DNA from: Verrucomicrobiia bacterium
GTDB lineage: Bacteria > Verrucomicrobiota > Verrucomicrobiia > Palsa-1439
Assembly: GCA_052146795.1 (NCBI GenBank)
Contig: JBKQMH010000024.1
Location: 2,853 to 66,852, forward strand
Direction of reading: 5' to 3'
Length of the DNA stretch: 64,000 nt
This document shows, one piece after another, positions 19,003 to 47,126 of the stretch (position 1 is the stretch's first letter; every line of letters starts with the position of its first letter). The translations under genes were made by a program, and so were the position numbers. The notes beneath the pieces are model-generated. The model had not been told where the DNA came from, did no database searches, and was given only the letters and a program-made list of their open reading frames with translations.

Positions 19003-20205
19003 TCAACGACGTCCGTAGGCTTCAAGCCCCAAGATTTCCTGGTACGCCTGCACCGTTTGTACCGCGACGCGGTCGGGCAGATGGCGGTCGCGGGCGCGTT
19101 GGCGCGCGGCCTCGCCCAGGCGCGCTCGTAGCTCCGGAGCCTTGAGCAATTGGAGGATGGCGTTCGCAAGCTCGGCAGGATTCCGAGGCGGAACCAGCCA
19201 GCCGGTCTGGCCGTGCTCGACCATGGAAGGGATTCCGCCGACCGCGGTGGCGATCACGGGCAGACCCGACACCATTGCTTCGGCGAGAGTGTTCGGACTG
19301 TTTTCGTTTCCCGACGGCAAAATAAACAGTTGGTTGTCGAGATGGTGTTTGGCGATCTGCTCGGCTGACTGAAAGCCCAGGAACTGAACGTTACCGGTGA
19401 TCTGCAACCGTTCACACAGTTGCTGATGCGGCACCTGATCCCCGCCACCGATTACCGTGAGCATGGTCTTTGGTTTCGTTTGTACCGCGAGTTTCAATGC
19501 CTCCAGAAGAACGTCCAGACCCTTGCGCGCTTCGAGTGAGCCGACGTACAGAAGTCGATCCTCATCACGCGCGCGCCATTCGTTCTGAAAGTAGACTGGG
19601 TTCATGGCTTCGTGGATCGTAAAAATGCGGGCGTTGGGGTTGACCGATCGGATGAACCCCGTGTCAAAACTGGTTCGACAGGTAAAGTACCTGGCGCGAC
19701 GCACGCAGTCCTGCTCGTAATGGCGGACGATTCGGGACCGCAGACACGGGTCCGTCTTAAAGTATTCGGTGACGATCCCCTGGATGGAGATCAGGCACGG
19801 CAGCCGCGTCTTGACAGCCGTGAGTGCGTAGGCAGCTTCCGTACCGTGGGCATGGACGACATCAGGCTCTATCGCCTGAACTTCTCTGAGTAACCGAGCG
19901 ACGTTCGCTCGAAAGCGGCTCAGGATATCCAGCGGCAGCCAGGGTGGGAACCCCCGGTTCAGGAAGGGTATGCCCGTCTTCACGACATGGAATGCAATGC
20001 GACCTTTCTGGACACGCTGGGTGGATGAGACGCGGCTGCTTTCGGTGACCAGATGCAATTCCACGTCCGGTCTCGCAGCGAGTGCATTCGAGAGATTGAC
20101 GATCCAACTGCACGGGTGCTCCGTGGAGGGTCTCCGCTTGACGTGAACCTCGGGCTCCAATGACAGGATCGGGAAAGGCGCGAGCCAGACGGCCTTCGTT
20201 TTCAT
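19003..20205 (-). CDS. GT4 family glycosyltransferase.
   Basis: C-terminal EARKG...VIATAVGGIPSMVEHGQTGWLVPP. Start at MKTKAVWLAPFP. ATGA overlap with the upstream gene. Confidence 0.8.
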   Translation of the reverse strand: MKTKAVWLAPFPILSLEPEVHVKRRPSTEHPCSWIVNLSNALAARPDVELHLVTESSRVSSTQRVQKGRIAFHVVKTGIPFLNRGFPPWLPLDILSRFRANVARLLREVQAIEPDVVHAHGTEAAYALTAVKTRLPCLISIQGIVTEYFKTDPCLRSRIVRHYEQDCVRRARYFTCRTSFDTGFIRSVNPNARIFTIHEAMNPVYFQNEWRARDEDRLLYVGSLEARKGLDVLLEALKLAVQTKPKTMLTVIGGGDQVPHQQLCERLQITGNVQFLGFQSAEQIAKHHLDNQLFILPSGNENSPNTLAEAMVSGLPVIATAVGGIPSMVEHGQTGWLVPPRNPAELANAILQLLKAPELRARLGEAARQRARDRHLPDRVAVQTVQAYQEILGLEAYGRR

Positions 20206-21764: not shown

Positions 21765-21945
21765 CGCGCAGGCCGCTTTCTCAGGTTCTGAGTGTCCTGA
21801 CTGTACATGAACCCACATTGGGCTGCAAGTGCTGTGCCACCAGTCGGGCGACTTGAGGGGACGCACTTTGGCCGCTGGTTGACCCTCGAAGCGGCATGCA
21901 CCGGCGAGCGGCAAGTTTGATTACGTGGTCGGTTGAAGCATCACG

Positions 21946-23820: not shown

Positions 23821-25185
23821 CTATTCTAAAACGCGCGGGCTAATCGCATGTACGGTGTGCTTAGACAGCAAACACGCATAGCCTACCCCTGCGTAGACGG
23901 TCAGAGTCAAGTCCCATGGGAGCCGGTACCGCTGATACCATTCGGTGATTACCATCACCTCGAAGGCGGTCAGTGCCAGGAACACCAGCAGGGCAAGGCG
24001 CGAGATCGCCAGGTGCCGCATCCGCCACCAACCGTAGTAGCCCGCCGGAAAAATCAGCAGCCAAAACACCGTGGCGATCACTCGATTCCGTGGCGACATC
24101 TGTCCGGTGAACGGCCCCAAGGTCGCGCACAACCTGACGAAACACAGCTTCGCATATTGGGCTGGGTTCTCGCGAATCCAGAGCAGCGCGGCCGGGGTGG
24201 AGTGGTGACCGGTGCGCTCCAGATAGGCGGCGTAACGCGCCGCCTCCTGCTCCGACATCTTCCAACGGGTCCACGGATTGCCGGGCCGCCGCTCCCAGAG
24301 GCTCCCAAGTCGCATACTTTCATAATACGGATTGTTTGCTTCCCACAGGATGGAGGCGGCGGCTTCCTCGGTGCCTTTCTCCGCCAGGGGCCCGCGCGCC
24401 GATACCTCCAACAGCACGCGGCTGGCCGCCGCGCCCAGCGCCACCAGGGCGCAGACCACGCAGACCGCGCGGCGGGTATCGATGAATTGCCACAGCAGCC
24501 ACAGACCCGCCGCCCCAGCGACGACGAAGAAGGCGGCCTGCGCGTAGGCACCCAGAGAGATCGCCAGCGTGAACAGCCACAACCGACCGCTCGTCTGCGG
24601 GCTGGAGGCAGCAAACAGCGCGAGTGCCATTACGAACAAAACCAGGGGCGTCGGGCCGATAGAGCCCACATGCATCGCCAACCGCAGATTGATGAAGACC
24701 AGCAAGGCCGCGATGATCATAGCCAACACACCCTGCCTTGTCGCAATCCGCCATGCCGCGCACGCCACAAACAGACACGTCAGGCCCGCCAACACCGCTT
24801 GCGCCACGGCCACCGGCAGCAAGCGAATACCTCCGCCCCAATAACAAGCAGCCAGAAAGTAAGCGTACACCGGAGCGTGGAAGAAAAACTTACCCGTACG
24901 GGCACGCGGTACACCGGTGCGAAGCGTTGCCATCGCCGCACGATTGTAGACGGTGGCATCCCGGTCCGCATCGCCGTTCCACCCCGGAAAACTGGCCAGA
25001 AAAGCTTCGCCCTCGAGATGCAGGCTGGTGCGGGTAGGGAGATTCTCAGCGTGTGTGGCGTAGTAAACGCCAAAGATCAGGTGGAAAACAAATGTTCCGA
25101 TCACCAGCAAACCTATCGGCAGGTGATTCCGTTGGAACAACTTCGCAGCATCCTGTATGTCGGCCTGACCTTGTCCCGCGTTCAT
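23821..25185 (-). CDS. GT-C membrane glycosyltransferase of the ArnT/PMT_2 type (GT83/GT39-like).
   Basis: Start at MNAGQ. First periplasmic loop DADRDATVYNRAAMA...KFFFHAPVYAYFLA resembles the ArnT DExRYAE...KPPLxY region. About 11 transmembrane segments. Confidence 0.6.
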   Translation of the reverse strand: MNAGQGQADIQDAAKLFQRNHLPIGLLVIGTFVFHLIFGVYYATHAENLPTRTSLHLEGEAFLASFPGWNGDADRDATVYNRAAMATLRTGVPRARTGKFFFHAPVYAYFLAACYWGGGIRLLPVAVAQAVLAGLTCLFVACAAWRIATRQGVLAMIIAALLVFINLRLAMHVGSIGPTPLVLFVMALALFAASSPQTSGRLWLFTLAISLGAYAQAAFFVVAGAAGLWLLWQFIDTRRAVCVVCALVALGAAASRVLLEVSARGPLAEKGTEEAAASILWEANNPYYESMRLGSLWERRPGNPWTRWKMSEQEAARYAAYLERTGHHSTPAALLWIRENPAQYAKLCFVRLCATLGPFTGQMSPRNRVIATVFWLLIFPAGYYGWWRMRHLAISRLALLVFLALTAFEVMVITEWYQRYRLPWDLTLTVYAGVGYACLLSKHTVHAISPRVLE

Positions 25186-26279
25186 CGGCCACCCGGCTCC
25201 TTGTCCGTGGGCCGCCCGGCTCCCGTCGCCGCCCGAGAAGCGACCGCATGCTGTGCGATGTTGACCGCCAGACCGTGTTCTCCCGACATGTTCCACAGGA
25301 CACTGCGATCCCCGGTCGTAATCGCCGTGTAAAAGTTGGCGTGAGTGATGTCCATGCCGTAGTGCAACCGGTGCCGGACGTACTTGACTCCGTTGGCAAT
25401 GAATCCGCGCCAGTGCTGAAAGGTCGTGAGAAACGAAGTGGTGAAAACCTCCTTCATCAAATGCTGCCCGTCGTTCGGAAGCACGGTCGAGATGTCGCGG
25501 AACATGTCCACCATCGCGTACCGCTTCGTTCCAAACACAATGAAGAACCATTCGCAGATGGGGCTCTCGAAGTTGCTATACACGGTTCCCGGCAAGCCGT
25601 TGACTTCCACCGTGATGTCCAGAATCTGTGGCGTGTTCTTGCCGGACGGGGAACCAACCACGGCCACGTCTTTGATCGCCACGTCCCCCCCGCCAAACCG
25701 GCGCAGCAGGTAGAACACATGCGGCGATTCGTCGTAGAACAACCCCAACGGAAGATCGTCCCCCCAAGCGGGAAGCCGACGCGTATCATTGCTAAACTGA
25801 ATGCAGTAGAAGCTTGTAACCGTCCCCAACTTGCCCTCGGCGATGAGCTGTTGCAGTTTGCGGAAACTGGAAGAGAACTGGAAGTTCTGATTCACCGCGA
25901 GGATGACCCGCTTCGCCGTCGCAAGGTCGATGAGTGTGCGGCCCTCCTGCAAATCGGTTACAAACGGTTTCTCAACGAGCACATGTTTCCCGATCTCCAA
26001 ACAGGCACGGACAGCCGGGGCATGCTGCTTGGGCGGTGTCGCAATAAGCACTGCGTCCACCTCCTGCAACAGAGGAATCGACCGCAACTGGCTGCTGTCG
26101 GAGCACACCACCGCGTGGGGGATTCCAAAGAGCCGGGCAACTCGTTCACTCTTGCTCTGCGTGTGATCGACGATGAGGGTGGGTTCAAATCGCTCGCGAC
26201 CCGCGGCGACCAACGCGGGCAAATGCCGCGTCTGCATGATGTTGCCCGCACCAATCAGAGCCAGCTTCAGTTTCTTCAT
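25182..26279 (-). CDS. Gfo/Idh/MocA family oxidoreductase.
   Basis: MKKLKLALIGAGNIMQTRHLPAL. ATGA overlaps on both sides. Confidence 0.8.
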   Translation of the reverse strand: MKKLKLALIGAGNIMQTRHLPALVAAGRERFEPTLIVDHTQSKSERVARLFGIPHAVVCSDSSQLRSIPLLQEVDAVLIATPPKQHAPAVRACLEIGKHVLVEKPFVTDLQEGRTLIDLATAKRVILAVNQNFQFSSSFRKLQQLIAEGKLGTVTSFYCIQFSNDTRRLPAWGDDLPLGLFYDESPHVFYLLRRFGGGDVAIKDVAVVGSPSGKNTPQILDITVEVNGLPGTVYSNFESPICEWFFIVFGTKRYAMVDMFRDISTVLPNDGQHLMKEVFTTSFLTTFQHWRGFIANGVKYVRHRLHYGMDITHANFYTAITTGDRSVLWNMSGEHGLAVNIAQHAVASRAATGAGRPTDKEPGGR

Positions 26280-34778: not shown

Positions 34779-35279
34779 TCTATCACAAGCACCCCGCCAG
34801 GCAAGCCATACAGACACGACGATTGCATCTGGGTGAGTGTGATTGTGCTGTTGTAAATGGGCGGGTGCGACCGGTTTACGGAGGCGTGTTTTTGACTTCC
34901 GGTTGGATGGGGTTTGTGGTTGAAGATGGGGATCGCCAACCCTCTCGATCGAGGCCAGTTGCCCGCGCGGCCCGAGCACCGCGGCTCTACCAGCAAAATC
35001 GCTTACTCAACGAGTTCACTTGTAGCCCTCCCTCGTGAATCAAGGGGCCAAACAGGTCGTGGTCCTCATGACAACGACACCCGGGAATTGCTCGACGATG
35101 AATCTTCCCCTTCGCTTTTTCGTCTCCATTACGGTTTACTTTGAGGCGCCTTGGAGCGAAGGCACGGGCTGTAGAATTGGCTTGTCAGCGTTGTCAAAGA
35201 CGTTACCATAAACTTTTACTCGAAACAATCGATCAGCGACAGGCGTGAAGCGTAAACCATATTGAGAAATGTAGGTTCC

Positions 35280-36257
35280 ATGCAAAACAGAATTCTAGTT
35301 GGGGGTGCGGGCGGGTTCATCGGCGGGCATCTGGTTGCCGACCTGCTGCGCAAAGGTCACACGAAGATTCGCGCGGTGGACATCAAGCCGTTCAATGAGT
35401 GGTATCAGCAGTCTCCAAAAGTCGAAAACCTCCAACTCGATTTGCGACTCAGGGACGCCTGTGAACGTTCCGCCGACGGCGTCGACGAAGTCTACAACCT
35501 GGCGGCCGACATGGGCGGCATGGGGTTCATCGAGAACAACCGGTGCCTGTGCATGTTGAGCGTGCTCATCAACACCCACCTGTTGATGGCGGCCCACAAG
35601 GCCGGCGTGAAGCGGTATTTTTATGCCTCGTCGGCTTGTGTCTACGCCGCGGACAAACAGACCGATCCGAACATTACCGGCCTTCGGGAAACCGACGCCT
35701 ATCCGGCAATGCCGGAAGACGGTTACGGCTGGGAGAAACTCTTCAGCGAACGCATGTGCCGACATTTCACCGAGGATTTCGGTCTGATCACGCGGGTGCC
35801 GCGGTTTCACAACGTGTATGGCCCGCACGGCACGTACGATGGCGGCCGGGAAAAAGCCCCGGCGGCCGTCTGCCGCAAAGTGATTTCCGCCAAGCTCGCC
35901 GGCCAGCATGAAATCGAGATTTGGGGTAACGGCGAGCAGACCCGCAGTTTCATGTACATCGACGACTGCCTCTACGGCATCGACCAGATCATGCACAGTG
36001 ACAAGGTGACCTTTCCCATCAATCTCGGCAGCGCGGAAAAAGTTTCCATCAACCAGCTCGTGGACATTGTGGAGGAGATCGCGGGGGTCAAATTGAAGCG
36101 CCGCTACAATCTTTCCGCCCCCAAGGGCGTCAATGGCCGGAACAGCGAGAACACATTGATCAAGAAGACGCTCGGTTGGGAACCGTCCACGCCGCTACGC
36201 GACGGGATGAAAAAGACCTATAATTGGATTCTCGGCGAAATGACCAAACACGCCTGA
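35280..36257 (+). CDS. GDP-mannose 3,5-epimerase-like NAD-dependent epimerase.
   Basis: Motifs match GME: NLAADMGGMGFI, YASSAC(V/I)Y, GREKAPAA(V/F)CRK, RGRNS(E/D)N. Confidence 0.75.
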   Translation: MQNRILVGGAGGFIGGHLVADLLRKGHTKIRAVDIKPFNEWYQQSPKVENLQLDLRLRDACERSADGVDEVYNLAADMGGMGFIENNRCLCMLSVLINTHLLMAAHKAGVKRYFYASSACVYAADKQTDPNITGLRETDAYPAMPEDGYGWEKLFSERMCRHFTEDFGLITRVPRFHNVYGPHGTYDGGREKAPAAVCRKVISAKLAGQHEIEIWGNGEQTRSFMYIDDCLYGIDQIMHSDKVTFPINLGSAEKVSINQLVDIVEEIAGVKLKRRYNLSAPKGVNGRNSENTLIKKTLGWEPSTPLRDGMKKTYNWILGEMTKHA

Positions 36258-36335
36258 GCCACACTGAGTAATGGTCGCGTCGATCTGTCTGTGCAAGAGG
36301 AGAAACCACCGAGAGACGCCAGCGGGGTTGAAATC

Positions 36336-37658
36336 ATGATCGCCTCTCGCGCACAACCCGGCGTTCTCCGCCGCTACCTCCAGGGAAATTGGCGGTATTG
36401 GCGCGAGTTCCGCCGCACCCAATGGCTCTCGGCCGATGAATTTCAGGCCCGCCAGATGGCGCAACTGCGCTGGCTGCTCGAAGACGCCGCGCAGAACGTG
36501 CCGTATTACCAGTCGCTGTTCGACAAGCTCGGCGCGACGCCGGATGATTTCCGCCAGTTGTCCGATCTTGCCCGTCTGCCGGTGCTGGAGAAGCAGCAGG
36601 TGCGGGAAACTCCGGATCAATTTCTTCATCGCTACAGCGACAAAAGCCAGCTCATTGAAGATCACACAAGCGGATCGACGGGCCAGCCGCTGCGGTTCTT
36701 CCTCACGGTCGAGCAAAAAGCCTGCGAGATGGCGCACTCGATCCGGTTTTGGCGGTGGGCAGGGTATCGCACCGGGGCGCGCATCGTGGCGTTTCGCCAT
36801 TACATTCCCAAACGCCCAACCGATCCGCTGTGGCAGCTGGATCGCCGCACCCGCACGCTGTTTTTCAGCGTGTATGACATGAAGCCGGTCAACCTGCGCG
36901 CCTATGTCGAGGAATTCAACCGCTACCAACCGCGGTTTGTGCGCGGCTATCCATCGTCGATCTACATTTTCGCCCAGTTTGCGGCCAGCGAAGGACTCCG
37001 CGTCCACGCGCCGCAAGCCGTGCTGTCCTCCAGTGAAACGCTCTCACCGGAGATGCGGTCGGTCATCGAACGCGTGTTGCAATGTCCCGTGTACGACTGG
37101 TGGGGCAGCAACGAGCGCGTTGGCACGGCCTGCCAGTGCGAGCGCCGCGGGCCGTTCCACGTTAATGGCGAGGGCGGCATCCTCGAATTGGCCCCGCTCC
37201 CGAACGCCGCGGGCGACGCCGGCCAGCGGATGATCGGCACGGGCTTGATCAACCACGCGATGCCGTTGATTCGGTATGACCTCGGCGATCTGGCGCTCCC
37301 GGCGAAGGAACCGTGCGGGTGCGGACGCGGGCTGCCGTGCATCGAGCGCATTCTCGGACGCGTCAACGACACGATTGTCACGGGCGAGCACAAATATATT
37401 CCGTCGGTGCGCTTTTACACGTTGTTTGAGACACACGACAAAGTGCGGCAGTTTCAAGTCATCCAAACCGAGCCCAATGCGGTGGTGGTGCGCATCGTGC
37501 CGGCCCGCGCGTTCAATGGCGCGGAGACGGACGAACTGCGGGTCAAGCTGGCCCGGTTTCTGGGCGACGCCGTCAAAATCGAATTCGAACTGGTCGACCA
37601 CATTCAGCCCGAGCCCAGCGGCAAAATCCGCAACGTGGTGTCGCTGGTGAAACCATGA
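36336..37658 (+). CDS. PaaK/F390-synthetase ('CapK') family adenylate-forming enzyme.
   Basis: AMP-binding motif TSGSTGQP. ATG at 36336. A GTG at 36291 is an alternative start. Confidence 0.75.
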   Translation: MIASRAQPGVLRRYLQGNWRYWREFRRTQWLSADEFQARQMAQLRWLLEDAAQNVPYYQSLFDKLGATPDDFRQLSDLARLPVLEKQQVRETPDQFLHRYSDKSQLIEDHTSGSTGQPLRFFLTVEQKACEMAHSIRFWRWAGYRTGARIVAFRHYIPKRPTDPLWQLDRRTRTLFFSVYDMKPVNLRAYVEEFNRYQPRFVRGYPSSIYIFAQFAASEGLRVHAPQAVLSSSETLSPEMRSVIERVLQCPVYDWWGSNERVGTACQCERRGPFHVNGEGGILELAPLPNAAGDAGQRMIGTGLINHAMPLIRYDLGDLALPAKEPCGCGRGLPCIERILGRVNDTIVTGEHKYIPSVRFYTLFETHDKVRQFQVIQTEPNAVVVRIVPARAFNGAETDELRVKLARFLGDAVKIEFELVDHIQPEPSGKIRNVVSLVKP

Positions 37659-38422
37659 TTCGCGCCGACCTCCATTGTCATACGTGCTACTCGCACGACA
37701 GTTTCGCGGCGGTGGACGCGGTGCTCGAACAGGCGTCGCGTCGCGGCCTGACGCACCTGGCGATCACCGACCACGACGAGATCGACGGCGCCTTGCGCGC
37801 GCGCGACGAGAGCCACGGTCTCGCGATCATCGTGGGCACGGAGGTCTCGCTGGAAGGCGGAGCGCACATCATCGGGTTGTTCCTGGAACGCAAGATCACG
37901 GCGCGACAATGGCGGGAAGCGGTGGATGAAATCCGCGCGCAACGCGGTTTCGTGGTGCTGCCGCATCCGTTTCAGCCGACATCGGGACTGTTGCGCGGCG
38001 GCATCGACGAGGAACTGTTGCGGAACGTGGACGCCATCGAGGTGTGCAATGGTTATGAGCCGCCCGACCGCAACGAGTCCGCGGCCAGACTGGCGCGCGA
38101 ACGCAACCTGCCGGCGCAGGCGGGGAGCGACGCGCATTATGCGGTGGACGTGGGGCGCGCGTGCGTTGAATTTCCGGATGTTTCCGGCGAATTGACGCCG
38201 GAGGCGTTGCGTCAGGCGACGCGCAAACTGTTCGGGCCGGCGCAGGATTTGTCGGGACTGCATGCCGCCGACTCGGCGTTTCGCGCACACACGGCCCCGC
38301 GGGCGCGCAAACTGCTTCCGAAAGCGTTGCGCAATTGCGCCAAAAAGGTAAACTGGTTGCGCGTGCAGCGCCAAATCGAACGCCAGGCACACGAACCCGT
38401 ACGAAAGGAATTCCACGGATGA
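37655..38422 (+). CDS. PHP-domain metal-dependent phosphoesterase.
   Basis: LHCHTCYSHD ... HLAITDHD PHP motifs. ATGA overlap with the upstream gene. Confidence 0.75.
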   Translation: MIRADLHCHTCYSHDSFAAVDAVLEQASRRGLTHLAITDHDEIDGALRARDESHGLAIIVGTEVSLEGGAHIIGLFLERKITARQWREAVDEIRAQRGFVVLPHPFQPTSGLLRGGIDEELLRNVDAIEVCNGYEPPDRNESAARLARERNLPAQAGSDAHYAVDVGRACVEFPDVSGELTPEALRQATRKLFGPAQDLSGLHAADSAFRAHTAPRARKLLPKALRNCAKKVNWLRVQRQIERQAHEPVRKEFHG

Positions 38423-39516
38423 CCGCTTCCTCAACGGACAAATGGGTACCACCGCACGTCGCGGCGCTGGACGGCTATCACGCAACCCCGCCCGTCGCCA
38501 GCGGCCCGGATGTACTGAAGATGGACCTGAACGAGTGCCAGGCGCCGCCGTCGCCGCGGGTGCTGGCGGCGTTGCGCGCCACGGTCGGCGAGAATGCGAC
38601 CCTGAACTGGTATCCCGACAGCGTGTGCACGGCGGTGCGGCAATCGCTGGGCCGCTACCTGAACGTGCCGTCGAATTTTTTGCTCGTGGCGAACGGGTCG
38701 AACATGGCGATGGAGCTGGTCGCGCGGGCGTTTCTGGTCCGGGACGATCCGGTGCTCATCGTGTCACCCGTGTACGCCGTCTTCTCGGTGCAGTGCAAAC
38801 TGCAACAGGCGCGGATCGAGTCGTTCCAGTTCAGCAAGCCGTTTGCGCCCGATTTTCAGGAACTGCTCGCGAAGGGTGGCGCGCACAAGATGATTTATCT
38901 CGCGAACCCGAACAACCCGACGGGCGTCGGTTATCCGCGGGAACAGATCCGCGCGCTGTTGGAGAAGCGGCGGGATGCGCTGGTCGTGCTCGACGAAGCC
39001 TACGTTGAGTATTACGGCGAAAGCAGCGTTGGGTTGATCGAGACGCACCCGAATTTGCTGGTCTTGCGGACCCTTTCCAAGGCGTTTTCGCTGGCCGGGA
39101 TGCGGTGCGGCTATGTGGTCGCCCAACCGACCGTGTTGGACATACTGGGGCGCGTGCTGGCGCCGTGGGCCGTCAGCGGCCTGACGCAGGTTGCCGCGCA
39201 CGCCGCGGTGGAAGACCTGGAGTACATGCGGAAGACGGTTGCGGAATGCAGTCGCGCGCGGCAGCAGGCGGTTGACGGCCTGAAGGAACTCGGATTTGTC
39301 GTTCACAACACGCAGGCGAATTTCATCCTCTGGCAGGTGCAGTCGCCGGCGCGCGCCGTGGAAGCGCTGGCCGCGCGGAACGTCCATGTCAGCAACAAGG
39401 ACTCCGTCCCGCAAATGAAAGGTTATTTGCGCGTGACCGTGGGCAGCCGCGAGCAGACGCAACGATTTCTGGGAATCGTCCAAGAGCTTCGGGCCAAAAG
39501 ATTGTTGGAGCCGTGA
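38419..39516 (+). CDS. Histidinol-phosphate aminotransferase family (class II PLP enzyme; HisC/CobD-like).
   Basis: About 365 aa, typical HisC-like. ATGA overlap. Confidence 0.8.
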   Translation: MTASSTDKWVPPHVAALDGYHATPPVASGPDVLKMDLNECQAPPSPRVLAALRATVGENATLNWYPDSVCTAVRQSLGRYLNVPSNFLLVANGSNMAMELVARAFLVRDDPVLIVSPVYAVFSVQCKLQQARIESFQFSKPFAPDFQELLAKGGAHKMIYLANPNNPTGVGYPREQIRALLEKRRDALVVLDEAYVEYYGESSVGLIETHPNLLVLRTLSKAFSLAGMRCGYVVAQPTVLDILGRVLAPWAVSGLTQVAAHAAVEDLEYMRKTVAECSRARQQAVDGLKELGFVVHNTQANFILWQVQSPARAVEALAARNVHVSNKDSVPQMKGYLRVTVGSREQTQRFLGIVQELRAKRLLEP

Positions 39517-41588
39517 AACAACTCGTCCAGGATTTCAAGACCGGCGACATCAAGCTGGTCGACGTGCTGTCGCCAGCGCTGCCGCCGGGCTGCGTGCGCG
39601 TCCGCAACGCGTTCTCGTTGGTCAGCGCGGGCACGGAACGGGCGACGGTGAACCTGGCGCAGCAATCGCTGGTCGGCAAGGCGCGGTCGCGGCCGGATTT
39701 GGTCCGGCGCGTGATCGAGACGGTCAAGCGCGAGGGTCTTGCCGCGGCGGTACGCAAGGTCCAGTCGCAACTCGATCAGTGGAAAGCGCTGGGCTATTCG
39801 TGCGCCGGCACGATTATCGAGGTCGGCGAGGGCGTGACGGGATTGTCGGTCGGCGACCGCGTGGCGTGCGGCGGACAGGACTACGCGAGCCACGCCGAGG
39901 AGGTTGTGGTCCCGCAGAACCTCTGCGCGAAATTGCCGGAAGGCGTGGCGCTGGAGCACGCGGTGTTTACCACGCTCGGCGCGATTGCCATGCAGGGTGT
40001 GCGGCAGGCCGATGCGCGTCTGGGGGAATCCGTCGCAGTGATCGGCCTGGGGTTGGTCGGGCAATTGACCGCGCAGATCCTGAAGGCGGCGGGTTGCGTC
40101 GTGCTGGGAATCGACGTGAGTGCCGAGGCCTGTGAGTTGGCCACGCGGTGCGGCTGCGACGCAGTGGCGACGCGTACCAGTGGCGACATCGAGCGCCTGG
40201 CGGCCCGGTTGACGAACGGGTTCGGAGTGGACGCGGCAATCATTGCGGCGGCGGCGCCGACGAACGACCCGATTGAATTGGCCGCGAAGATTTGCCGCGA
40301 GCGGGGTCGGGTGGTGATGGTCGGCGTGACGGGGATGGAGCTTCCGCGCGATCTGTTCTACGAGAAGGAACTCGAATTCAGGCTGTCCCGCAGCTACGGC
40401 CCGGGACGATACGATCCGCTCTACGAAGAAAAAGGCGTGGATTACCCGATTGGTTACGTCCGCTGGACCGAGCAACGGAACATGGAAGCGTTCGTCCAGT
40501 TGCTGGCCGGCAAACGCGTGGACGTCACGCCGCTGATGACGCATACATTCGCGATTGAGGACGCGCCAAAGGCCTACGAGTTGATCACGGGGAAGACCCA
40601 GGAGCGATTTGTGGGCGTGCTCCTGAAATACCCGATCGGAGAAGGGCGGGGCGCGAAACGGGCAACGATGGCGACGAGTGCTTCATCGGCGGCCCGCCAT
40701 TCGTCGGTGGTGCTTGGCGTGATTGGCGCCGGGAATTACGCGCAGAGCGTCCTGTTGCCGCAATTCAAAGCGAACGCGGACGTGACGTTGCGGACGGTGT
40801 GCACGGCCACGGGCGTGAAAGCGGAAAAGGCGAAAGAGAAATTTGGGTTTGAAACCAGCACCACCAACTGGCGCGACGTATTGGCGGACAAGGCGGTGAA
40901 TACGGTACTGATCGCGACGCGGCACGACTTGCACGCGGAGATCGTCATGGAAGCGTTGCGGGCTGGAAAAACGGTGTTTTGCGAGAAGCCACTGTGTCTG
41001 CGCGCCGAGGAACTCGACGAAATTACCAGTGTGATCCAGACGAGCGGCAACTCGCGGTTGACGGTGGGATTCAATCGGCGGTTTGCGCCGTTTGCCGCGC
41101 GGGCGCGTGGACTGGCGGGACCGTTGGTGATGCGCTATCGCGTGAGCGTGCAGCCGTTGCCGTCGGACCATTGGATCAATGACCCGGCGGCCGGCGGCGG
41201 TCGCATCCTCGGCGAGGTGTGCCATTTCATCGATTTCCTGCGGTTTACAGCGCGATCGCGAGTGGTCTCGGTGTTCGCGCAGGGATTTGGCGGCGAGAAC
41301 GTGCAGGTCGCGCTCCGATTCGCCGATGGATCAGTGGGATCGATCGATTACTTCAACATCGCCGACGCAGCATTGAAAAAGGAACAAGTCGAAGTGTTCG
41401 CGGGCGGCAAGCACATGATCGAAGACGATTTTCGTGAGAAGGGCCAAGCGGAGGAAGTGAGGCAGTTCGTGCACGCCGTGAAAACGGGCGGGCCGATGCC
41501 GATTCCGCTGGAAGAGATTGTGGACAGCACGCGGGCGACGCTGGCGGTGATGGAATCGATCCGGACAGGACGGGCGATCGAACTGTAA
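39513..41588 (+). CDS. Bi-domain oxidoreductase: N-terminal MDR Zn-dependent alcohol dehydrogenase-like domain fused to a C-terminal Gfo/Idh/MocA domain.
   Basis: GTG start overlapping the previous stop (GTGA). VIGLGLVGQ Rossmann motif, followed by VLGVIGAGNYAQS. Confidence 0.75.
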   Translation: MKQLVQDFKTGDIKLVDVLSPALPPGCVRVRNAFSLVSAGTERATVNLAQQSLVGKARSRPDLVRRVIETVKREGLAAAVRKVQSQLDQWKALGYSCAGTIIEVGEGVTGLSVGDRVACGGQDYASHAEEVVVPQNLCAKLPEGVALEHAVFTTLGAIAMQGVRQADARLGESVAVIGLGLVGQLTAQILKAAGCVVLGIDVSAEACELATRCGCDAVATRTSGDIERLAARLTNGFGVDAAIIAAAAPTNDPIELAAKICRERGRVVMVGVTGMELPRDLFYEKELEFRLSRSYGPGRYDPLYEEKGVDYPIGYVRWTEQRNMEAFVQLLAGKRVDVTPLMTHTFAIEDAPKAYELITGKTQERFVGVLLKYPIGEGRGAKRATMATSASSAARHSSVVLGVIGAGNYAQSVLLPQFKANADVTLRTVCTATGVKAEKAKEKFGFETSTTNWRDVLADKAVNTVLIATRHDLHAEIVMEALRAGKTVFCEKPLCLRAEELDEITSVIQTSGNSRLTVGFNRRFAPFAARARGLAGPLVMRYRVSVQPLPSDHWINDPAAGGGRILGEVCHFIDFLRFTARSRVVSVFAQGFGGENVQVALRFADGSVGSIDYFNIADAALKKEQVEVFAGGKHMIEDDFREKGQAEEVRQFVHAVKTGGPMPIPLEEIVDSTRATLAVMESIRTGRAIEL

Positions 41589-41594
41589 CCGCTG

Positions 41595-42644
41595 ATGAAC
41601 CCACCGAAGATGTCCAAGGCGGTCGCCACCCAAGGCAAACGATTTCGCGACGTCTGGCAGCAGTTACACGAGTACGGCACGTCGCGCGGTTGGCGCGGGT
41701 ATGACCCGTACGACGGATTAAACTCACCACTCGCGCGCTTGTTGCCGGGAAAACTGGCGCGTCAAGCCTGGACGCAGTTGCATCGGCGCAGCCCGGTTAA
41801 TCTGCGGCCATTGTGCGGGATCCAACCGACACTCAACCCCAAAGCGCTGGCGCTGGCCGCGCTCGGGAGCCGGGACGAAAGATTGTTGGATCAACTCGAG
41901 TCGCTGCGAACGCCGCAAGGCGGCTGGGGATATCCGTTCGCCTGGCAATCACGGGCGTTTTTTGCGCCGCGCGGGACGCCCAATCTCATTTGCACGGCGT
42001 TCGCCGCGCGGGCCTACGAGCGAATGGGACGGAAATGCGACGTGAGCTTTCTGGAAAGGCAGTTACTGCGCGAGCGAGACGGCGAATGCTGGCTGTCGTA
42101 TGTGCCGCATTCCGACACGCAGGTGCACAACGTCAACATGATCGGCGCCACGTTGCTGGGACGGCGCGATTGCATGGAGTTTTCGGTCAAGCGCCAGCGA
42201 GTGGACGGTTCGTGGTGGTACGGAGAGTCTGAGAACCAGCATTGGATCGACAATTTTCACACGGGATACAGCCTCGTGGCGCTGAAAGATTACGAGAAGC
42301 GATCCGGCGACGGCAGTTTTGCGGACAGCGCGGAGCGCGGGTTTGCGTTTTGGGAGAAATCATTTTGGCGGACGGATGGCGCGCCGCGGTATTACCACAA
42401 CGAAGACTACCCGTTTGACACCCACTGCAGCGCGCAGGGAATCCTGACATTCCTGGCTTTCGGGCGCGTCGAGAAGGCCGTTCAGGCAGCGGAATGGGCC
42501 GTGGAAAACATGTGGGACAAGCGAGGTTTTTTCTGGTATCAATGCGGACGCCGTGGGACCAACCGTTTGAGCTACATCCGGTGGACACAAGCGTGGATGT
42601 ACTACGCCTTGGCGGAATTGCTTTCGATGATTGAGCGGACATGA
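41595..42644 (+). CDS. Hypothetical protein, possibly an (alpha/alpha)-toroid fold (QGGWGY and DGSWWY motifs).
   Basis: 349 aa, soluble, inside the operon. Functional assignment uncertain. Confidence 0.4.
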   Translation: MNPPKMSKAVATQGKRFRDVWQQLHEYGTSRGWRGYDPYDGLNSPLARLLPGKLARQAWTQLHRRSPVNLRPLCGIQPTLNPKALALAALGSRDERLLDQLESLRTPQGGWGYPFAWQSRAFFAPRGTPNLICTAFAARAYERMGRKCDVSFLERQLLRERDGECWLSYVPHSDTQVHNVNMIGATLLGRRDCMEFSVKRQRVDGSWWYGESENQHWIDNFHTGYSLVALKDYEKRSGDGSFADSAERGFAFWEKSFWRTDGAPRYYHNEDYPFDTHCSAQGILTFLAFGRVEKAVQAAEWAVENMWDKRGFFWYQCGRRGTNRLSYIRWTQAWMYYALAELLSMIERT

Positions 42645-43750
42645 TGAAAATGCGGATTGTCAACATAGTCGGGGCGCGGCCCAACTTCATGAAGATGGCG
42701 CCGCTGATGGAGGAGTACGCGCGCCATCCGGAGGATTTTGCGCCGGTGCTGGTGCATACAGGCCAGCACTACGATGACAACATGTCGAAGCTGTTTTTCG
42801 AGGAGTTGCGCCTGCCGAAACCGGATGTGTACCTCGGGGTCGGCTCCGGGTCGCACGCCGAGCAGACCGCGCGGGTGATGATCGAACTGGAGAAGCTGCT
42901 CGTGGCGGACCGTCCGGATCTGGTGATGGTCGTTGGCGACGTGAACTCGACGCTGGCCGCCGCGTTGGTCGCGGCCAAGCTGTGCATTCCACTGGCGCAC
43001 GTCGAGGCGGGTCTGCGGAGTTTCGACCGGACCATGCCGGAGGAGATCAACCGCGTGGTGACGGATACGCTGAGCGATTATTGCTTCACGACCTGTGCGG
43101 ATGCGAACGAGAACCTCCTGCGGGAGGGAATCGCCAGGGAAAAGATATTCTTTGTGGGCAACGTGATGATCGACACGTTGCTGAAACTGCGGGACGAAAG
43201 CCTCAAGTCGGACATTCGCAAGGAACTGCGGTTGGACTCCGAATACGGGTATGTGACGTTGCACCGGGCCAGCAATGTGGATTCGAAAGAGGTGCTCTCG
43301 GGGATCCTTTCGGCGCTGGAATCGATCCAACAGCGACTGCCGCTGGCATTTCCGGTGCATCCCAGGACCGGTGCTCGACTGAAAGAGTTCGGCTTTTGGG
43401 ACCGGGTAAACCGATGGCCGAATATCAGGATTGTCGGGCCGCTGGGCTATCTGGATTCGTTGTGTCTCATGGCTGGCGCGAAGCTTGTCCTGAGCGATTC
43501 GGGCGGTATCCAGGAAGAGACGACTGTGCTTGGCGTTCCGTGCCTGACCCTTCGCAATAACACCGACCGTCCCGTGACCGTGACCGAGGGCACAAGCACT
43601 CTCGTCGGAACAGCCCAAGAGAAAATCATTACTGAAGCCGTAAAGATCATTGACGGAAATCGCAAGAATGGTCGCGTCCCAAAGTATTGGGATGGCAAAG
43701 CGGCGTCGCGAATCGCCAGATGCCTGTTGGAGCATCCGCCTGGCAAGTGA
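42641..43750 (+). CDS. wecB: UDP-N-acetylglucosamine 2-epimerase (non-hydrolyzing).
   Basis: MRIVNIVGARPNFMKMAPL...HTGQHYD. ATGA overlap. Confidence 0.9.
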   Translation: MMKMRIVNIVGARPNFMKMAPLMEEYARHPEDFAPVLVHTGQHYDDNMSKLFFEELRLPKPDVYLGVGSGSHAEQTARVMIELEKLLVADRPDLVMVVGDVNSTLAAALVAAKLCIPLAHVEAGLRSFDRTMPEEINRVVTDTLSDYCFTTCADANENLLREGIAREKIFFVGNVMIDTLLKLRDESLKSDIRKELRLDSEYGYVTLHRASNVDSKEVLSGILSALESIQQRLPLAFPVHPRTGARLKEFGFWDRVNRWPNIRIVGPLGYLDSLCLMAGAKLVLSDSGGIQEETTVLGVPCLTLRNNTDRPVTVTEGTSTLVGTAQEKIITEAVKIIDGNRKNGRVPKYWDGKAASRIARCLLEHPPGK

Positions 43751-44502
43751 AAGTGCCTCCTTCAGAGAAGGTTACGCTTTTTGGCGTCCCGATTGACAAC
43801 CTCACGATGGCGGAGGTGGTCGATCGCATTGAAGCGATGGTCCGGGATGGGGGGATTCACCAGCACGTGGTTGTCAACGTGGACAAAATTGTCAAGATGC
43901 AGTCGAATCCAAGTCTGCGGCAGACAATTCTAGATTGTGACCTTATCACAGTCGACGGACAGCCAGTGATTTGGGTTTCCAAATTATTCAAATGTCCTAT
44001 CAAAGAACGGGTTACGGGGGTAGATTTGTTCAATGCATTGATGGCGCGGTGTGGGGAGCGTGGACTTCGACCATACCTACTGGGTGCGCGTCAGGAAATC
44101 GTGGCAAAGGTGGTGGACGTGCTGAAAGCCAGGTATCCAAAGCTTGATCTGGCTGGTTGGCGAAATGGCTATTGGACGGCTGACGAAGAGGACAATATTG
44201 TACAGGCAATCAAGCAGGCCAAGCCGGATGTGCTCTGCATGGCTCTCGGGTCTCCGAAACAGGAGCTGTTCCTGGGAAAATGGAAGCAGGAAATGCGCGT
44301 GCCGTTCGTGATGGGGGTGGGTGGCAGCTTTGACGTAACGGCCGGAGTTCTGCGGCGTGCGCCGCAGTGGATGCAGCGATTGGGGTTGGAGTGGTTGTTC
44401 CGTTTGGCACAAGAGCCGCGGCGGCTTTGGCGGCGCTACTTGAATGAGGACATGGCGTTTTTCCGGTTGGTATGGCGGGAATGGCGGGCGAAACGGTCCT
44501 AG
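43747..44502 (+). CDS. WecG/TagA/CpsF family glycosyltransferase (GT26).
   Basis: LFGVPIDNLTMAEVVDRI...CMALGSPKQE. GTG overlapping the wecB stop. Alternative ATG at 43720. Confidence 0.8.
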   Translation: MKVPPSEKVTLFGVPIDNLTMAEVVDRIEAMVRDGGIHQHVVVNVDKIVKMQSNPSLRQTILDCDLITVDGQPVIWVSKLFKCPIKERVTGVDLFNALMARCGERGLRPYLLGARQEIVAKVVDVLKARYPKLDLAGWRNGYWTADEEDNIVQAIKQAKPDVLCMALGSPKQELFLGKWKQEMRVPFVMGVGGSFDVTAGVLRRAPQWMQRLGLEWLFRLAQEPRRLWRRYLNEDMAFFRLVWREWRAKRS

Positions 44503-44608: not shown

Positions 44609-45322
44609 ATGGCACGAGAAGCGCAAGACGACTTACGAATAACGGACCAATTTGATTTTGAGGTGTTTTGGGAGAAGCACGGAAAGCAGATCACGGGCGG
44701 AGTGATAGCCGTTGCCGCGTTCGGTCTGTTACTTCTCTACTGGCAGCACCAAGCGAATTATCAGGTCGAACAGGCTAACGAGAACTTGGCGCATGCGACG
44801 GATTCAGCGTCACTGCAGGCGGTCGCGCGCGATTTTCCCAAGTCGCCAGTGGCACCCGAGGCACTGGCGCGGCTCGCGGATTTGTTTTACCGGAATGGCC
44901 GATATCCCGAAGCCGCAAGTACTTACCAATCACTCATCAGGGATTTTCCCAGTCATCCGCTGGCCGTGTCGGGCAAGTTGGGTTTGGCGGAGGTCTTGGA
45001 GGCACAGGGCAACACCGACGGCGCCAAGGCCCAGTACTCGCAGATCATAAACTCGGGACCGAACAGCTATATTGCGAATGCCGCCAAGATGGGGCTGGCA
45101 CGGTGCCTGGAGGTACAAGGCCAAAAGAAGGAGGCACGGCAACTGTACGAGGAGTTGCTGGCGGTAGGTCAAAACTCCCCGTGGTTTGAGAAGGCCTATC
45201 TCCGCATGGTGGTACTCAATCGCGATGTGCCTCCAGAAAAGGCCGATCAACCTTCGGCAAACCCGTCGCCCGCACCCGTGTCGGGGGGGCCACAATTGCC
45301 ACCAACATCCGGGTCGCCGTAG
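44609..45322 (+). CDS. Membrane-anchored tetratricopeptide-repeat protein (YfgM/YbgF-like).
   Basis: N-terminal transmembrane segment, TPR-like helical repeats, Pro-rich tail. GGAGGA Shine-Dalgarno. Confidence 0.6.
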   Translation: MAREAQDDLRITDQFDFEVFWEKHGKQITGGVIAVAAFGLLLLYWQHQANYQVEQANENLAHATDSASLQAVARDFPKSPVAPEALARLADLFYRNGRYPEAASTYQSLIRDFPSHPLAVSGKLGLAEVLEAQGNTDGAKAQYSQIINSGPNSYIANAAKMGLARCLEVQGQKKEARQLYEELLAVGQNSPWFEKAYLRMVVLNRDVPPEKADQPSANPSPAPVSGGPQLPPTSGSP

Positions 45323-45647: not shown

Positions 45648-47126
45648 GTGAAAAAACTATGGCTAGTAGTCGCGCTGGCAACCTTGGGGGGATTGGCCAG
45701 TAAGACATTCGCCGATGTCCAGAATATCCGCCTCAGCGGGGACATCCGTATCCGCGGGTATTTTCTCGATAGCGCGGGTGGTGATATCCCCGATGGTGCA
45801 CCGTACGCGCCAATCAAGGGAAGCACCACGATCATTGAACAACGAACGCGGGTGTCGGTGGAAGCCGACCTTGAAGACCACGTGCTCGTCGTGGTGACCC
45901 TGCAGGCCGAAGGTCAGTGGGGCGCCGACAACGGCGTAGGCGCTACGGGAGCAGGAACGGGAAATGCCAACGGTACTTCCTTGGATTCATCGGGCAATCC
46001 GAACGCATCTGGGAACAAGATCGCCCGTCTGTGGGGAGTGGGCGTTGCCGAGGCATACGTTCAGTTCAATGAAGTGTTCTACACACCCGCCACGCTCAAG
46101 CTGGGTCGCCAGTACCTGCAATACGGTCGCGGGTTGATCCTCAGCAGCGTGGAACAGGAATACAACTATGACGCCGCCCGGCTCGTGCTCGACTACTATC
46201 CGTTGACGATTGACATCGTCGGCGCCGAGGTGGTCAACAACCAGAGCTTTGGGGGCACACCAAACAAAGCCCTCCAAGGCGCGACGGTGCCGCCGCCGCT
46301 AGGCGCGAGCGATCTATTGTTCGTCAATGCGCGCTATGAGCTGAGCGACTCCGCCATTAAAGACGTCGAAGCGTACCTCGGTTGGCTTTCGCAGAGCGCG
46401 AATAATCTGATCTCAGAAAGCCGTGTGCCTGCGACGCTGGCAGCCAGTTCCCCAATCATTGTCGGGTTGCGCGCCGACATCAATCCAGTGGATGCGCTCC
46501 AGACTTGGTGGGAAGCCGCTTATGAGTTTGGCGCCAATGGCAGTGGTGTTGCCGGTGCCGGTGATAATGGAGGCACGATCGGGGCGTTTCTTCTGAACGC
46601 GGGTGGTAAGTACACGTTCAAGGACGTGCAGTGGGTACCGGTATTGAATGGAAACTTCATTTACGCATCTGGTGGCGGCGATGGCCAGGAAGTCTCGGGT
46701 GCTGGAAATGCCCAGTTCCGCCCATGGTTCGACTACGCGGACGGGTACAATGGTTATCTGTTCGAACCAGCCCTGTCGGATATTGCCATCTTCAACCTGG
46801 GCGCATCGGTGAAGCCGTACGAGAACACCACGCTCTCGCTCCAAAGTTACTACTACATGAAGGCCGACAAGGCTGGCCTTGCCGGCAGCAACGGCAACGT
46901 TGACTGGGGCGGCCCGACGTGGGCTGCGCCCGCTGTCGGCTCCACCGGCAACGACAACGGTCTCGGGTGGGAATTGGATGGCATCCTCGGCTACGACTAC
47001 AGCAAGGACGTTCGTGCGCAGCTTGTCTACGGCGTGTTCTTGCCAGGGGACGCCTATCGCAACGCAGCGGTACAGGTAACCCGCGCGGCGGAGGAAGTCC
47101 GAGCCGAACTCAATGTGAAGTTCTAG
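45648..47126 (+). CDS. Outer-membrane beta-barrel protein (porin-like).
   Basis: GTG start with an AAGGAGGA Shine-Dalgarno sequence. Signal peptide MKKLWLVVALATLGGLASKTFA. Gly/Asn/Tyr-rich. C-terminal ...ELNVKF (terminal Phe). Confidence 0.55.
   Translation: MKKLWLVVALATLGGLASKTFADVQNIRLSGDIRIRGYFLDSAGGDIPDGAPYAPIKGSTTIIEQRTRVSVEADLEDHVLVVVTLQAEGQWGADNGVGATGAGTGNANGTSLDSSGNPNASGNKIARLWGVGVAEAYVQFNEVFYTPATLKLGRQYLQYGRGLILSSVEQEYNYDAARLVLDYYPLTIDIVGAEVVNNQSFGGTPNKALQGATVPPPLGASDLLFVNARYELSDSAIKDVEAYLGWLSQSANNLISESRVPATLAASSPIIVGLRADINPVDALQTWWEAAYEFGANGSGVAGAGDNGGTIGAFLLNAGGKYTFKDVQWVPVLNGNFIYASGGGDGQEVSGAGNAQFRPWFDYADGYNGYLFEPALSDIAIFNLGASVKPYENTTLSLQSYYYMKADKAGLAGSNGNVDWGGPTWAAPAVGSTGNDNGLGWELDGILGYDYSKDVRAQLVYGVFLPGDAYRNAAVQVTRAAEEVRAELNVKF

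Follow-up and report, generated by a model that had tools for sequence, protein, structure and literature searches.

The genome of an uncultured soil bacterium of the Verrucomicrobiia (metagenome-assembled genome, MAG; GenBank assembly GCA_052146795.1) contains, on contig JBKQMH010000024.1, a 64-kb stretch of 64,000 nucleotides (forward-strand positions 2,853 to 66,852, hereafter the window) that is an exosortase (XrtA-like)/PEP-CTERM exopolysaccharide locus and encodes a seven-gene operon (G1 to G7, positions 36336-44502 of the window, + strand). The seven genes form one real, conserved operon built of modules. A CapK-like adenylating enzyme (G1), a PHP-fold phosphoesterase (G2) and a HisC/CobD-like enzyme dependent on pyridoxal phosphate (PLP; G3) make up a tight core, a nearly obligatory trio that is the tightest association in the operon, and a bi-domain oxidoreductase (G4) and an alpha/alpha-barrel protein (G5) make up a recurring pair that is separable from the trio. 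We tentatively propose, giving the idea not quite an even chance, that the operon directs the decoration of a uronic residue with an amide-linked amino alcohol, for which G3 would supply a phosphorylated amine, G1 would activate and amidate the sugar carboxylate and G2 would remove the phosphate. The operon comprises the following features:

36310..36335, + strand: 5' leader of G1 and left edge of the conserved block (blastn of related loci L006, L007 and L009)
36336..37658, + strand: G1, CapK-like (PaaK/F390-synthetase family) adenylate-forming enzyme, 440 aa (PF27533 CapK_C, PaaK structures)
37655..38422, + strand: G2, PHP-fold metal phosphoesterase with a C-terminal helical extension, 255 aa (PF02811 PHP and PF13263 PHP_C)
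38419..39516, + strand: G3, fold-type I PLP enzyme of the HisC/CobD group, 365 aa (Aminotran_1_2)
39513..41588, + strand: G4, bi-domain oxidoreductase combining a medium-chain dehydrogenase/reductase (MDR) fold with a Gfo/Idh/MocA domain, 691 aa (ADH_zinc_N 61 bits, GFO_IDH_MocA 82 bits)
41595..42644, + strand: G5, cytoplasmic (alpha/alpha)6-barrel protein, 349 aa (AlphaFold2 model)
42641..43750, + strand: G6, non-hydrolysing UDP-GlcNAc 2-epimerase (WecB family), 369 aa (PF02350, 360 bits)
43747..44502, + strand: G7, glycosyltransferase of family GT26 (WecG/TagA/CpsF), 251 aa, or 260 aa with the ATG at 43720 (PF03808)

A reading of the window made from the sequence alone (hereafter the sequence-only reading) had described seven coupled genes joined by 4-nt overlaps or by gaps of 6 nt or less, and the open reading frames (ORFs) and their junctions bear this out, all seven being present on the + strand at the coordinates it had given. 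The G1/G2, G2/G3 and G5/G6 junctions are 4-nt overlaps (-4 nt) of the sequence ATGA, the G3/G4 and G6/G7 junctions are overlaps of the same length (-4 nt) of the sequence GTGA, and G4 and G5 are separated by a gap of 6 nt (+6 nt). Its assignments to gene families likewise agree with the Pfam, NCBIfam and structure matches, and the names given to the operon genes by the NCBI annotation pipeline (PGAP) are the generic ones to be expected. Homology to three related genomes (L006, L007 and L009; blastn against the window) begins at position 36310 or 36354, with a sharp onset at 36310, 26 nt before the ATG of G1; because this onset lies 3' of the upstream GTG at 36291, the ATG at 36336 is preferred as the start of G1. 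A gene for a short-chain dehydrogenase/reductase (35262-36257), separated from G1 by a 78-nt gap, is not conserved beside the block in the three relatives and, judged from these alignments, lies outside the unit. G7 may start either at the GTG at 43747 (4-nt overlap) or at the ATG at 43720 (31-nt overlap), both of which are kept in relatives, and the 201-aa PGAP model of this gene trims conserved N-terminal residues. Each of the seven genes is under purifying selection (dN/dS 0.06-0.23 against three relatives), and divergence rates are similar across all of them. No signal peptide was predicted in G1-G7, the only predicted membrane-segment candidate is one borderline hydrophobic stretch in G6, and all seven proteins are cytoplasmic. 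A promoter and terminator scan of the operon gave no usable signal.

Species-representative genomes scanned with an alignment of G1 yielded 80 loci (98-29% identity), which were screened with phmmer, and a scan of metagenomes that started from divergent PHP proteins of the cassette yielded 10 loci with a full-length match and 70 with a match to the core only. The sequence-only reading had named a lack of conservation as a unit in related genomes as what would speak against it, and this was not seen: the full order G1-G7 is kept in L006 (98% amino acid identity), L007 (90%) and L008 (69%), in the metagenome loci L099, L101 and L102, and, at about 37% PHP identity, in L086, where TPR, porin and NUDIX genes follow downstream. 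Not only the order but also the overlaps are kept in L006, L007, L008, L099-L102 and L086. An AsnB-type gene lies between G3 and G4 in L008, and a gene for a 1034-aa Type ISP restriction-modification enzyme (N6_Mtase and Type_ISP_C) is inserted between the G4 and G5 orthologs of L007 (L007:15352-18456), where both flanks are intact.

Further loci lose or gain modules. L003 and L010 encode the order WecG'-G1-G2-G3-G4-(WecC-like)-G5-WecG, and L011 (Zixibacteria) and L012 (Syntrophobacteraceae) encode G1-G2-G3-G4, followed in L012 by a heparinase II/III-like gene and WecB. L089 and L098 carry the trio but not G4, and G4 is found without G2 and G3 in L015, L034, L047, L056, L068 and L092. Two of the latter, L047 and L092, encode CapK-G4-G5-WecB, in which G4, G5 and WecB share about 65-70% identity with their counterparts and the CapK belongs to a different clade; that G2 and G3 are optional and that the CapK clade switches with them fits a CapK specificity that changes with the amine supply. 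G5 is also found with WecB/WecG in L093 and L094. The seven-gene pathway of the sequence-only reading therefore stands as a conserved operon but not as an indivisible one, with PHP and HisC missing from L047 and L092 and G4 from L089 and L098. On a single contig (Ga0078972_1001006), which holds both L094 and L098, the unit is split into WecG'-CapK-PHP-HisC-like and PLD-G5-WecG. A stretch of about 9-10 kb with dnaN, dnaA and glnA separates the two parts, and a bi-domain oxidoreductase is absent.

The linkage of the trio is tighter than that of the operon as a whole. The cassette-type PHP protein (full-length, including the C-terminal extension) occurs in the window and 21 further loci, 22 in all. 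A CapK-like gene lies upstream of it in every locus in which upstream sequence is present, a HisC/CobD-like gene lies immediately 3' of it wherever sequence exists, and the genes for G2 and G3 invariably lie side by side and overlap. Among PHP proteins of the sister clade, 0 of 74 (the 70 core-only metagenome matches and 4 others) have a CapK or HisC partner. In a neighbour-joining (NJ) tree of 102 CapK-like sequences, all CapK proteins linked to PHP and HisC, including G1, fall into one clade (bootstrap 89/100) that spans Verrucomicrobiota, Zixibacteria and Syntrophobacteraceae (three or more phyla), the verrucomicrobial part being recovered with a bootstrap of 100/100. The CapK proteins linked solely to G4 and G5 also cluster, at a bootstrap of 10/100, and no claim to a second clade is made. 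The trio was found exclusively in MAGs of uncultured organisms and on contigs from metagenomes.

Some trio loci contain additional genes. A class I methyltransferase dependent on S-adenosylmethionine is encoded between CapK and PHP in L001 (L001:11326-12153; weak match to the DVU_1556 family) and in L089 (L089:13542-14372), and in L089 a YfhO-like membrane protein is also inserted there. The sister-clade PHP proteins of L087, L088, L090 and L091 (about 9001-9711; 236-239 aa, lacking the C-terminal extension) are always translationally coupled to an LPG_synthase_TM gene, and this pair is found downstream of the ATP synthase operon, a gene with an EPSP_synthase domain and mreB, which is a housekeeping context.

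G1 is assigned by its family matches and motifs to the ANL/PaaK-like adenylate-forming enzymes, CapK subgroup. The domain PF27533 (CapK_C) was found in the precomputed annotation of its cluster, Pfam gives a weak AMP-binding match, and the PaaK structures 2y4o and 4r1l are matched at an E-value of 1e-18. The TSGSTG P-loop and the C-terminal G429-K430 are retained, T111, G113, T115, G429 and K430 being invariant or nearly so in 31 homologs. The score on the PaaK equivalog model TIGR02155 (82.5 bits) is below the cut-off of 646.3, the best-scoring ligase model is that of the DVU_1553 family, and 'phenylacetate--CoA ligase family protein', as PGAP names it, denotes no more than the family. In the same 31 homologs C268, H275, C327 and C329 are invariant and possibly form a structural metal site; these residues are also found in 4r1l and not in 2y4o, and the idea that the Cys/His cluster is a clade-specific feature of G1 was rejected since the PaaK homolog 4r1l has it too. 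The immediate neighbours of distant CapK-like genes are nearly all polysaccharide genes (GT4 and GT2 glycosyltransferases, AsnB-type amidotransferases, UDP-sugar dehydrogenases and acetyltransferases). Several CapK-like domains are fused to glycosyltransferases, as in a 713-aa WecG::CapK protein (P0050; L005:10001-12142), GT2::CapK proteins of about 735 aa in many clusters (P0083, P0087 and others) and an 864-aa GT4::CapK_C protein (L001:1-1541). DUF362 proteins are encoded directly beside CapK-like genes at L092:4468-5787, L001:1547-3037 and as three other immediate neighbours.

G2 has the motifs and the predicted fold of a PHP metal-dependent phosphoesterase. Among the metal ligands, H7, H9, D15, H40, E63, D159 and H161 show no variation and H104 shows almost none, and the AlphaFold2 model (predicted local distance difference test, pLDDT, 94) has RNase AM/TrpH (7ug9), TM0559 and PsfC as its top Foldseek matches. 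On this model G2 is TrpH/RNase AM-like and neither CpsB-like nor HisJ-like. The suggestion that the PHP protein is of the histidinol-phosphate phosphatase type did not hold, as G2 scores 21 bits on TIGR01856 (cut-off 90) and the HisJ/HisK structure 2yxo appears only at Foldseek rank 39, with a template-modelling score (TM) of 0.39. The PHP fold alone would also allow G2 to be a CpsB-type tyrosine phosphatase that regulates a bacterial tyrosine kinase (BY-kinase), a role to which we attach next to no credence: CpsB is not matched in Pfam or NCBIfam, CpsB/YwqE (3qy6) appears at Foldseek rank 50 (E 8e-3, TM 0.40), and the scanned ORFs of 200 aa or more in the window include neither a BY-kinase nor a Wzz domain. 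The sequence-only reading had named a CpsB grouping together with a nearby BY-kinase as what would speak against it, and neither was found.

G3 is a fold-type I PLP enzyme (Aminotran_1_2, 188 bits) that scores 280.3 bits on the HisC model TIGR01141, 4 bits above the cut-off of 276.55, and 199.5 bits on the CobD model TIGR01140, below the cut-off of 290.55. Six orthologs score 153-267 on HisC, all below the cut-off, and 158-209 on CobD, and the ortholog in L086 scores better on CobD than on HisC, yet remains under the CobD cut-off. Aligned to HisC of Escherichia coli, G3 keeps the equivalents of Y55, N157, D184, Y187, K214, R222 and R335, and R322 is replaced by Ser. R335 is presumably the arginine that binds phosphate or carboxylate, and on that assumption its retention fits a small phospho-substrate. 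The change of Asp85 to Asn was judged non-diagnostic because Asn also occurs at this position in actinobacterial HisC. Neither the residue mapping nor the model scores of the six orthologs separated transaminase from decarboxylase. In the Syntrophobacteraceae locus L012 the HisC-like gene is cut to a 166-aa N-terminal fragment (L012:12081-12581) between intact PHP and G4 genes, which is probably a pseudogene or an assembly problem.

G3 and G2 might be housekeeping histidine-biosynthesis genes that came to lie in a polysaccharide operon by chance. G3 passes the HisC cut-off and is named histidinol-phosphate transaminase by PGAP, and a NadE gene embedded in the same exopolysaccharide locus shows that housekeeping genes can sit there. 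We consider such a coincidence highly improbable, as the G1-G2-G3 linkage is seen in 22 loci of three or more phyla, all other scored cassette orthologs of G3 fall under the HisC cut-off, one of them scoring better as CobD, and G2 is not of the HisJ type. Furthermore, the genomic setting of G3 is polysaccharide synthesis and not histidine biosynthesis, and no other his genes were found near the operon among the scanned window ORFs.

The last two genes of the operon point to N-acetylmannosamine (ManNAc) as the sugar theme. G6 scores 343.4 bits on TIGR00236 (cut-off 210.15) and is a WecB homolog by this measure, and G7 passes the family-level cut-offs (PF03808, 216 bits against 27; TIGR00696, 161 bits against 69) but stays below those of the equivalogs WecG (147 vs 323), TarA (142 vs 350) and EpsA (171 vs 500).

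G4 had been described as a fusion of a zinc-dependent alcohol dehydrogenase and a Gfo/Idh/MocA protein. The fusion of an MDR half and a Gfo half stands, but the canonical zinc-ligand motif is absent: the MDR half, which has a partial ADH_N match (30.6 bits), carries LGY where GHE is expected, and its N-terminal motif reads S-x-[VI]-S-x-G-T-E, both in 12/12 aligned orthologs. By its motifs this half is an MDR-fold dehydrogenase or reductase domain rather than an established zinc-dependent alcohol dehydrogenase. The C-terminal half has the matches and residues of a Gfo/Idh/MocA protein (PF01408, 82 bits; PF22725, 29 bits; G405-A-G407, E491-K-P493 and H571 invariant) and resembles sugar 3-dehydrogenases and inositol dehydrogenases. 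Both Rossmann motifs and the EKP motif are conserved in the 12 orthologs, which come from several phyla and also share an invariant stretch at residues 292-323 (S-x-S-Y-G-P-G-R-Y-D-x-x-Y-E-x-x-G-x-D-Y-P-x-x-x-V-R-W-T-E-x-R-N). This stretch lies toward the C-terminus of the MDR half, at some distance before the Gfo domain, and may mark a substrate site or a domain interface.

G5 has no Pfam, NCBIfam or PDB sequence match; its family comprises 3217 relatives, and a Pfam domain is present in 0 of 120 among the matches listed. The AlphaFold2 model (pLDDT 91.8) is an (alpha/alpha)6 barrel for which Foldseek returns class II terpene cyclases, AGE-type sugar epimerases/isomerases, GH88/GH105 and a polysaccharide lyase, all at a TM of about 0.6 or less. 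As these matches reflect only the generic (alpha/alpha)6 fold, a specific function was not assigned from them. Kinship with squalene cyclases was likewise dropped, since comparison of the profile with the PDB gave only insignificant matches resembling QW repeats, and an hhalign comparison with a heparinase II/III-like protein that stands in its place in other loci shows no detectable kinship. A heparinase II/III-like gene replaces G5 in L012 and L034 and lies elsewhere in the locus in L001 and L011. In the first scan, 10 of the 13 loci containing G4 also encoded G5 or a heparinase II/III-like protein, and the remaining 3 end at contig edges; G5 partners with G4 and, as in L093 and L094, with WecB and GT26.

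Whether G4 takes the place of the missing dehydrogenase WecC, as the sequence-only reading had suggested, is weakly supported. WecB and a WecC-like gene are never found together within 10 kb in loci that contain G4, but in L003 and L010 a WecC-like gene lies directly 3' of G4, which argues against a simple replacement.

We hypothesize that the operon functions as follows. WecB (G6) would make UDP-ManNAc, and the GT26 enzyme (G7) would move a ManNAc-type residue onto the lipid-linked repeat unit. G4 and G5 might remodel this residue, the most economical guess being oxidation toward a uronic acid, possibly with epimerisation. G3 would make a small phosphorylated amine from a central metabolite, with serinol phosphate (by transamination of dihydroxyacetone phosphate, DHAP) and ethanolamine phosphate or aminopropanol phosphate (by decarboxylation of phospho-serine or phospho-threonine) as candidate products. 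G1 would adenylate the sugar carboxylate and couple the amine to it as an amide, and G2 would strip the phosphate before or after ligation, so that the net product would be a residue of N-acetylmannosaminuronic acid (ManNAcA) type, or another uronic residue, with an amide-linked amino alcohol. As all seven proteins are cytoplasmic, this chemistry would take place on a nucleotide sugar or on a lipid-linked oligosaccharide. The catalytic motifs are intact in G1 (P-loop and Lys), G2 (metal ligands), G3 (PLP-lysine motif) and G4 (NAD and EKP motifs). That CapK, PHP and HisC jointly build and attach an amine substituent, as had been suggested from the sequence, has strong genomic support in the linkage of the trio and in the single CapK clade; from the gene content we infer the substrates, the products, whether G2 acts before or after G1, and what G4 and G5 do, the last of these being guesses.

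Several observations weigh against amidation of a uronic acid. The window contains no UDP-sugar 6-dehydrogenase gene (WecC/Ugd, UDPG_MGDP_dh) or other enzyme that forms a uronic acid, so that the acceptor carboxylate is an assumption, and in the phmmer screen a UDP-sugar dehydrogenase is encoded within 10 kb at only 7 of 83 CapK-like loci. The WecC-like gene beside G4 in L003 and L010 also speaks against G4 simply replacing WecC. Characterised PaaK-family relatives of G1 activate small free acids and not glycans, the nearest structural relatives of G2 are nucleotide or RNA phosphoesterases and not phosphatases of amino-alcohol phosphates, and by score G3 is indistinguishable from a true histidinol-phosphate aminotransferase. 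In addition, the full-text literature searched yielded no publication that deals with the cassette, with what CapK-type enzymes do or with bi-domain oxidoreductases.

The small-acid ligases among the relatives of G1 and the lack of a sugar carboxylate source in the window would both be accommodated if the polarity were reversed, with G1 activating a small free acid and acylating the sugar on an amino or hydroxyl function. This acid would be an amino acid made from a keto-alcohol phosphate by G3 (HisC-like), G2 (HisJ-like) and an oxidation from alcohol to acid by the two domains of G4 (HisD-like). The gene order G2-G3-G4 parallels the chemistry of HisJ, HisC and HisD, G3 scores as HisC, and G4 has two NAD-type domains. 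We nevertheless regard this route as unlikely. The trio lacks G4 in L089 and L098 and G4 lacks G2 and G3 in the six loci listed above, and G4 is therefore not an obligatory step after G2 and G3; for the same reason a histidine-like conversion of an amino-alcohol phosphate via the amino alcohol to an amino acid was demoted. Moreover, G2 is not of the HisJ type, and the operon contains neither an amino-sugar-forming (DegT) nor a de-N-acetylating gene.

The resemblance of the Gfo half of G4 to sugar 3-dehydrogenases and inositol dehydrogenases could also be taken to mean that the Gfo domain makes a keto sugar that G3 aminates. G2, whose nearest relatives include, besides RNase AM/TrpH, the pAp phosphatase Cv1693, would in this case be a nucleotide or pyrophosphate phosphoesterase that drives the adenylation or clears the nucleotide by-product. 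Such an amino-sugar pathway appears improbable, as sugar aminotransferases are normally of the DegT type and not of the HisC type, the trio persists without G4, and G3 keeps the equivalent of R335, which, if the role assumed above is correct, fits a small phospho-substrate. The constant adjacency and translational coupling of G2 and G3 furthermore suggest that they catalyse consecutive steps.

The closest precedent for amide decoration is the uronamide system of Campylobacter jejuni HS:2. There, Cj1437 or Cj1436 makes serinol phosphate (from DHAP) or ethanolamine phosphate (from phospho-serine), Cj1438, a fusion of a GT2 with an amide ligase, uses its ATP-grasp domain to ligate the phospho-amino-alcohol to glucuronic acid (GlcA) on the growing chain, and Cj1435 then dephosphorylates it (PMC11800379, PMC12409886). 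The sequence of a PLP enzyme yielding a phospho-amino-alcohol, an ATP-dependent amide ligase and a phosphatase is the same as that proposed here from genes alone, and the fusion of ligase and glycosyltransferase is paralleled by the WecG::CapK and GT2::CapK proteins of related loci. The differences lie in the ligase, which is of the ANL/PaaK type here and a TupA-like ATP-grasp enzyme there, in the phosphatase, which has the PHP fold here, whereas Cj1435 is of the HAD type, and in the sugar theme, which is ManNAc(A) here and GlcA there. The operon resembles the C. jejuni system in its logic but, having neither an ATP-grasp ligase nor a Cj1435-type phosphatase, is not a member of it. The decoration route had been called undescribed; its logic is already established in C. 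jejuni HS:2, but the enzyme set, with an ANL-type ligase and a PHP phosphatase, is new.

Other known pathways share single steps with the operon. Besides the C. jejuni pathway, cobalamin biosynthesis is the other established case in which a HisC-family enzyme, here CobD (L-threonine-O-3-phosphate decarboxylase), makes a phospho-amino-alcohol; CbiB joins it to a carboxylate as an amide. The HisC-family PLP enzyme is common to both, G3 reaching 199.5 bits on the CobD model, but this is under the cut-off of 290.6, no cobalamin genes are found nearby and in the operon a sugar acid is the presumed acceptor. The pair of WecB and GT26 is the standard one for incorporation of ManNAc or ManNAcA into enterobacterial common antigen and the teichoic-acid linkage unit, but compared with WecB/WecC/WecG-TagA systems the window lacks WecC, G7 falls under the WecG and TarA equivalogs, and for priming the locus encodes a WcaJ/EpsZ-like hexose-1-phosphate transferase and not WecA. 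The late steps of histidine biosynthesis likewise place a HisC-like transaminase beside a PHP phosphoesterase, and a two-step NAD oxidation by G4 is conceivable; the differences are that G2 is TrpH/RNase AM-like, that G4 is unrelated to HisD and separable, and that the context here is a polysaccharide locus.

Amidation of ManNAcA with threonine (ManNAcA6Thr) is known from Methanococcus N-glycans (PMC11407970). As proposed here, the carboxyl group of ManNAcA is amidated by an amine, and in the methanogen locus L032 WecB lies directly upstream of a CapK-like gene; the substituent, however, is an amino acid, and a PHP/HisC pair is absent. The gene responsible for the threonine attachment in Methanococcus, aglU, presumably encodes an F390-synthetase/CapK-like protein. 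Searches of the full-text literature that covered the amidation of uronic acids by PaaK-like enzymes and clusters of heparinase II, Gfo and AsnB found no description of the cassette.

A more far-reaching version of the proposal has two parts. The trio would be a non-homologous counterpart of the Campylobacter ATP-grasp/phosphatase amidation in uncultured phyla of soil and sediment, and the zinc-less G4 together with the alpha/alpha-barrel (or heparinase II/III-like) protein would be a new remodelling system that converts a ManNAc-type residue into the acceptor acid in the absence of WecC, possibly at the stage of a lipid-linked intermediate. As a whole, this version seems to us somewhat unlikely.

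When uronic acids carry amide-linked amines, surface polysaccharides differ in charge and antigenicity, and in the literature searched C. jejuni provides the only documented pathway for such decorations. If the amide-decoration proposal is true, the operon would represent a second, unrelated enzyme set and offer a genomic marker for uronamide decorations; it would also give a function to the large, vaguely named group of 'CapK / phenylacetate-CoA ligase family' proteins of polysaccharide loci and provide new ligases for glycan engineering. Should it prove wrong, a sharply delimited association of three genes across phyla would remain; this association is solid, and the chemistry is what we infer from it. 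The interpretation of the sequence-only reading as a whole is partly supported. Furthermore, the G5 alpha/alpha-barrel protein and the bi-domain oxidoreductase represent large families that are tightly tied to ManNAc genes, and both are good targets for enzymology.

Two further genes with Pfam matches lie 3' of the operon:

44609-45322, + strand: TPR protein
45648-47126, + strand: Alginate_exp-type outer-membrane porin

The order TPR-Alginate_exp-NUDIX downstream of the operon is shared by L006, L086 and L092, and the TPR protein and the porin likely belong to export and not to the decoration chemistry. Two promoter-like sites that precede the porin gene do not belong to a repeat.

In addition to the operon, the surrounding locus encodes an exosortase, EpsI, a WcaJ/EpsZ-like priming transferase, a flippase, an acetyltransferase, many GT4 and GT2 glycosyltransferases, a YfhO-like protein and a Gfo oxidoreductase. 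Scans of the window ORFs found no AsnB-type amidotransferase, heparinase-like protein or DegT aminotransferase. The NadE gene, encoding a glutamine-dependent NAD+ synthase (21946-23616, - strand; 699 bits, cut-off 479), is flanked by glycosyltransferase and membrane-protein genes on the same strand; it is probably an embedded housekeeping gene, and its product is itself an adenylating amidotransferase. Two ORFs on the - strand (20202-21914, 570 aa, and 23821-25551, 576 aa) are each predicted to have 7-8 membrane segments, match nothing in Pfam or NCBIfam, and possibly encode polymerase- or ligase-like proteins. The sole clear dip in GC content in the window (0.51 compared with about 0.59) coincides with an 831-aa ORF with a C-terminal PKD domain (9841-12336).

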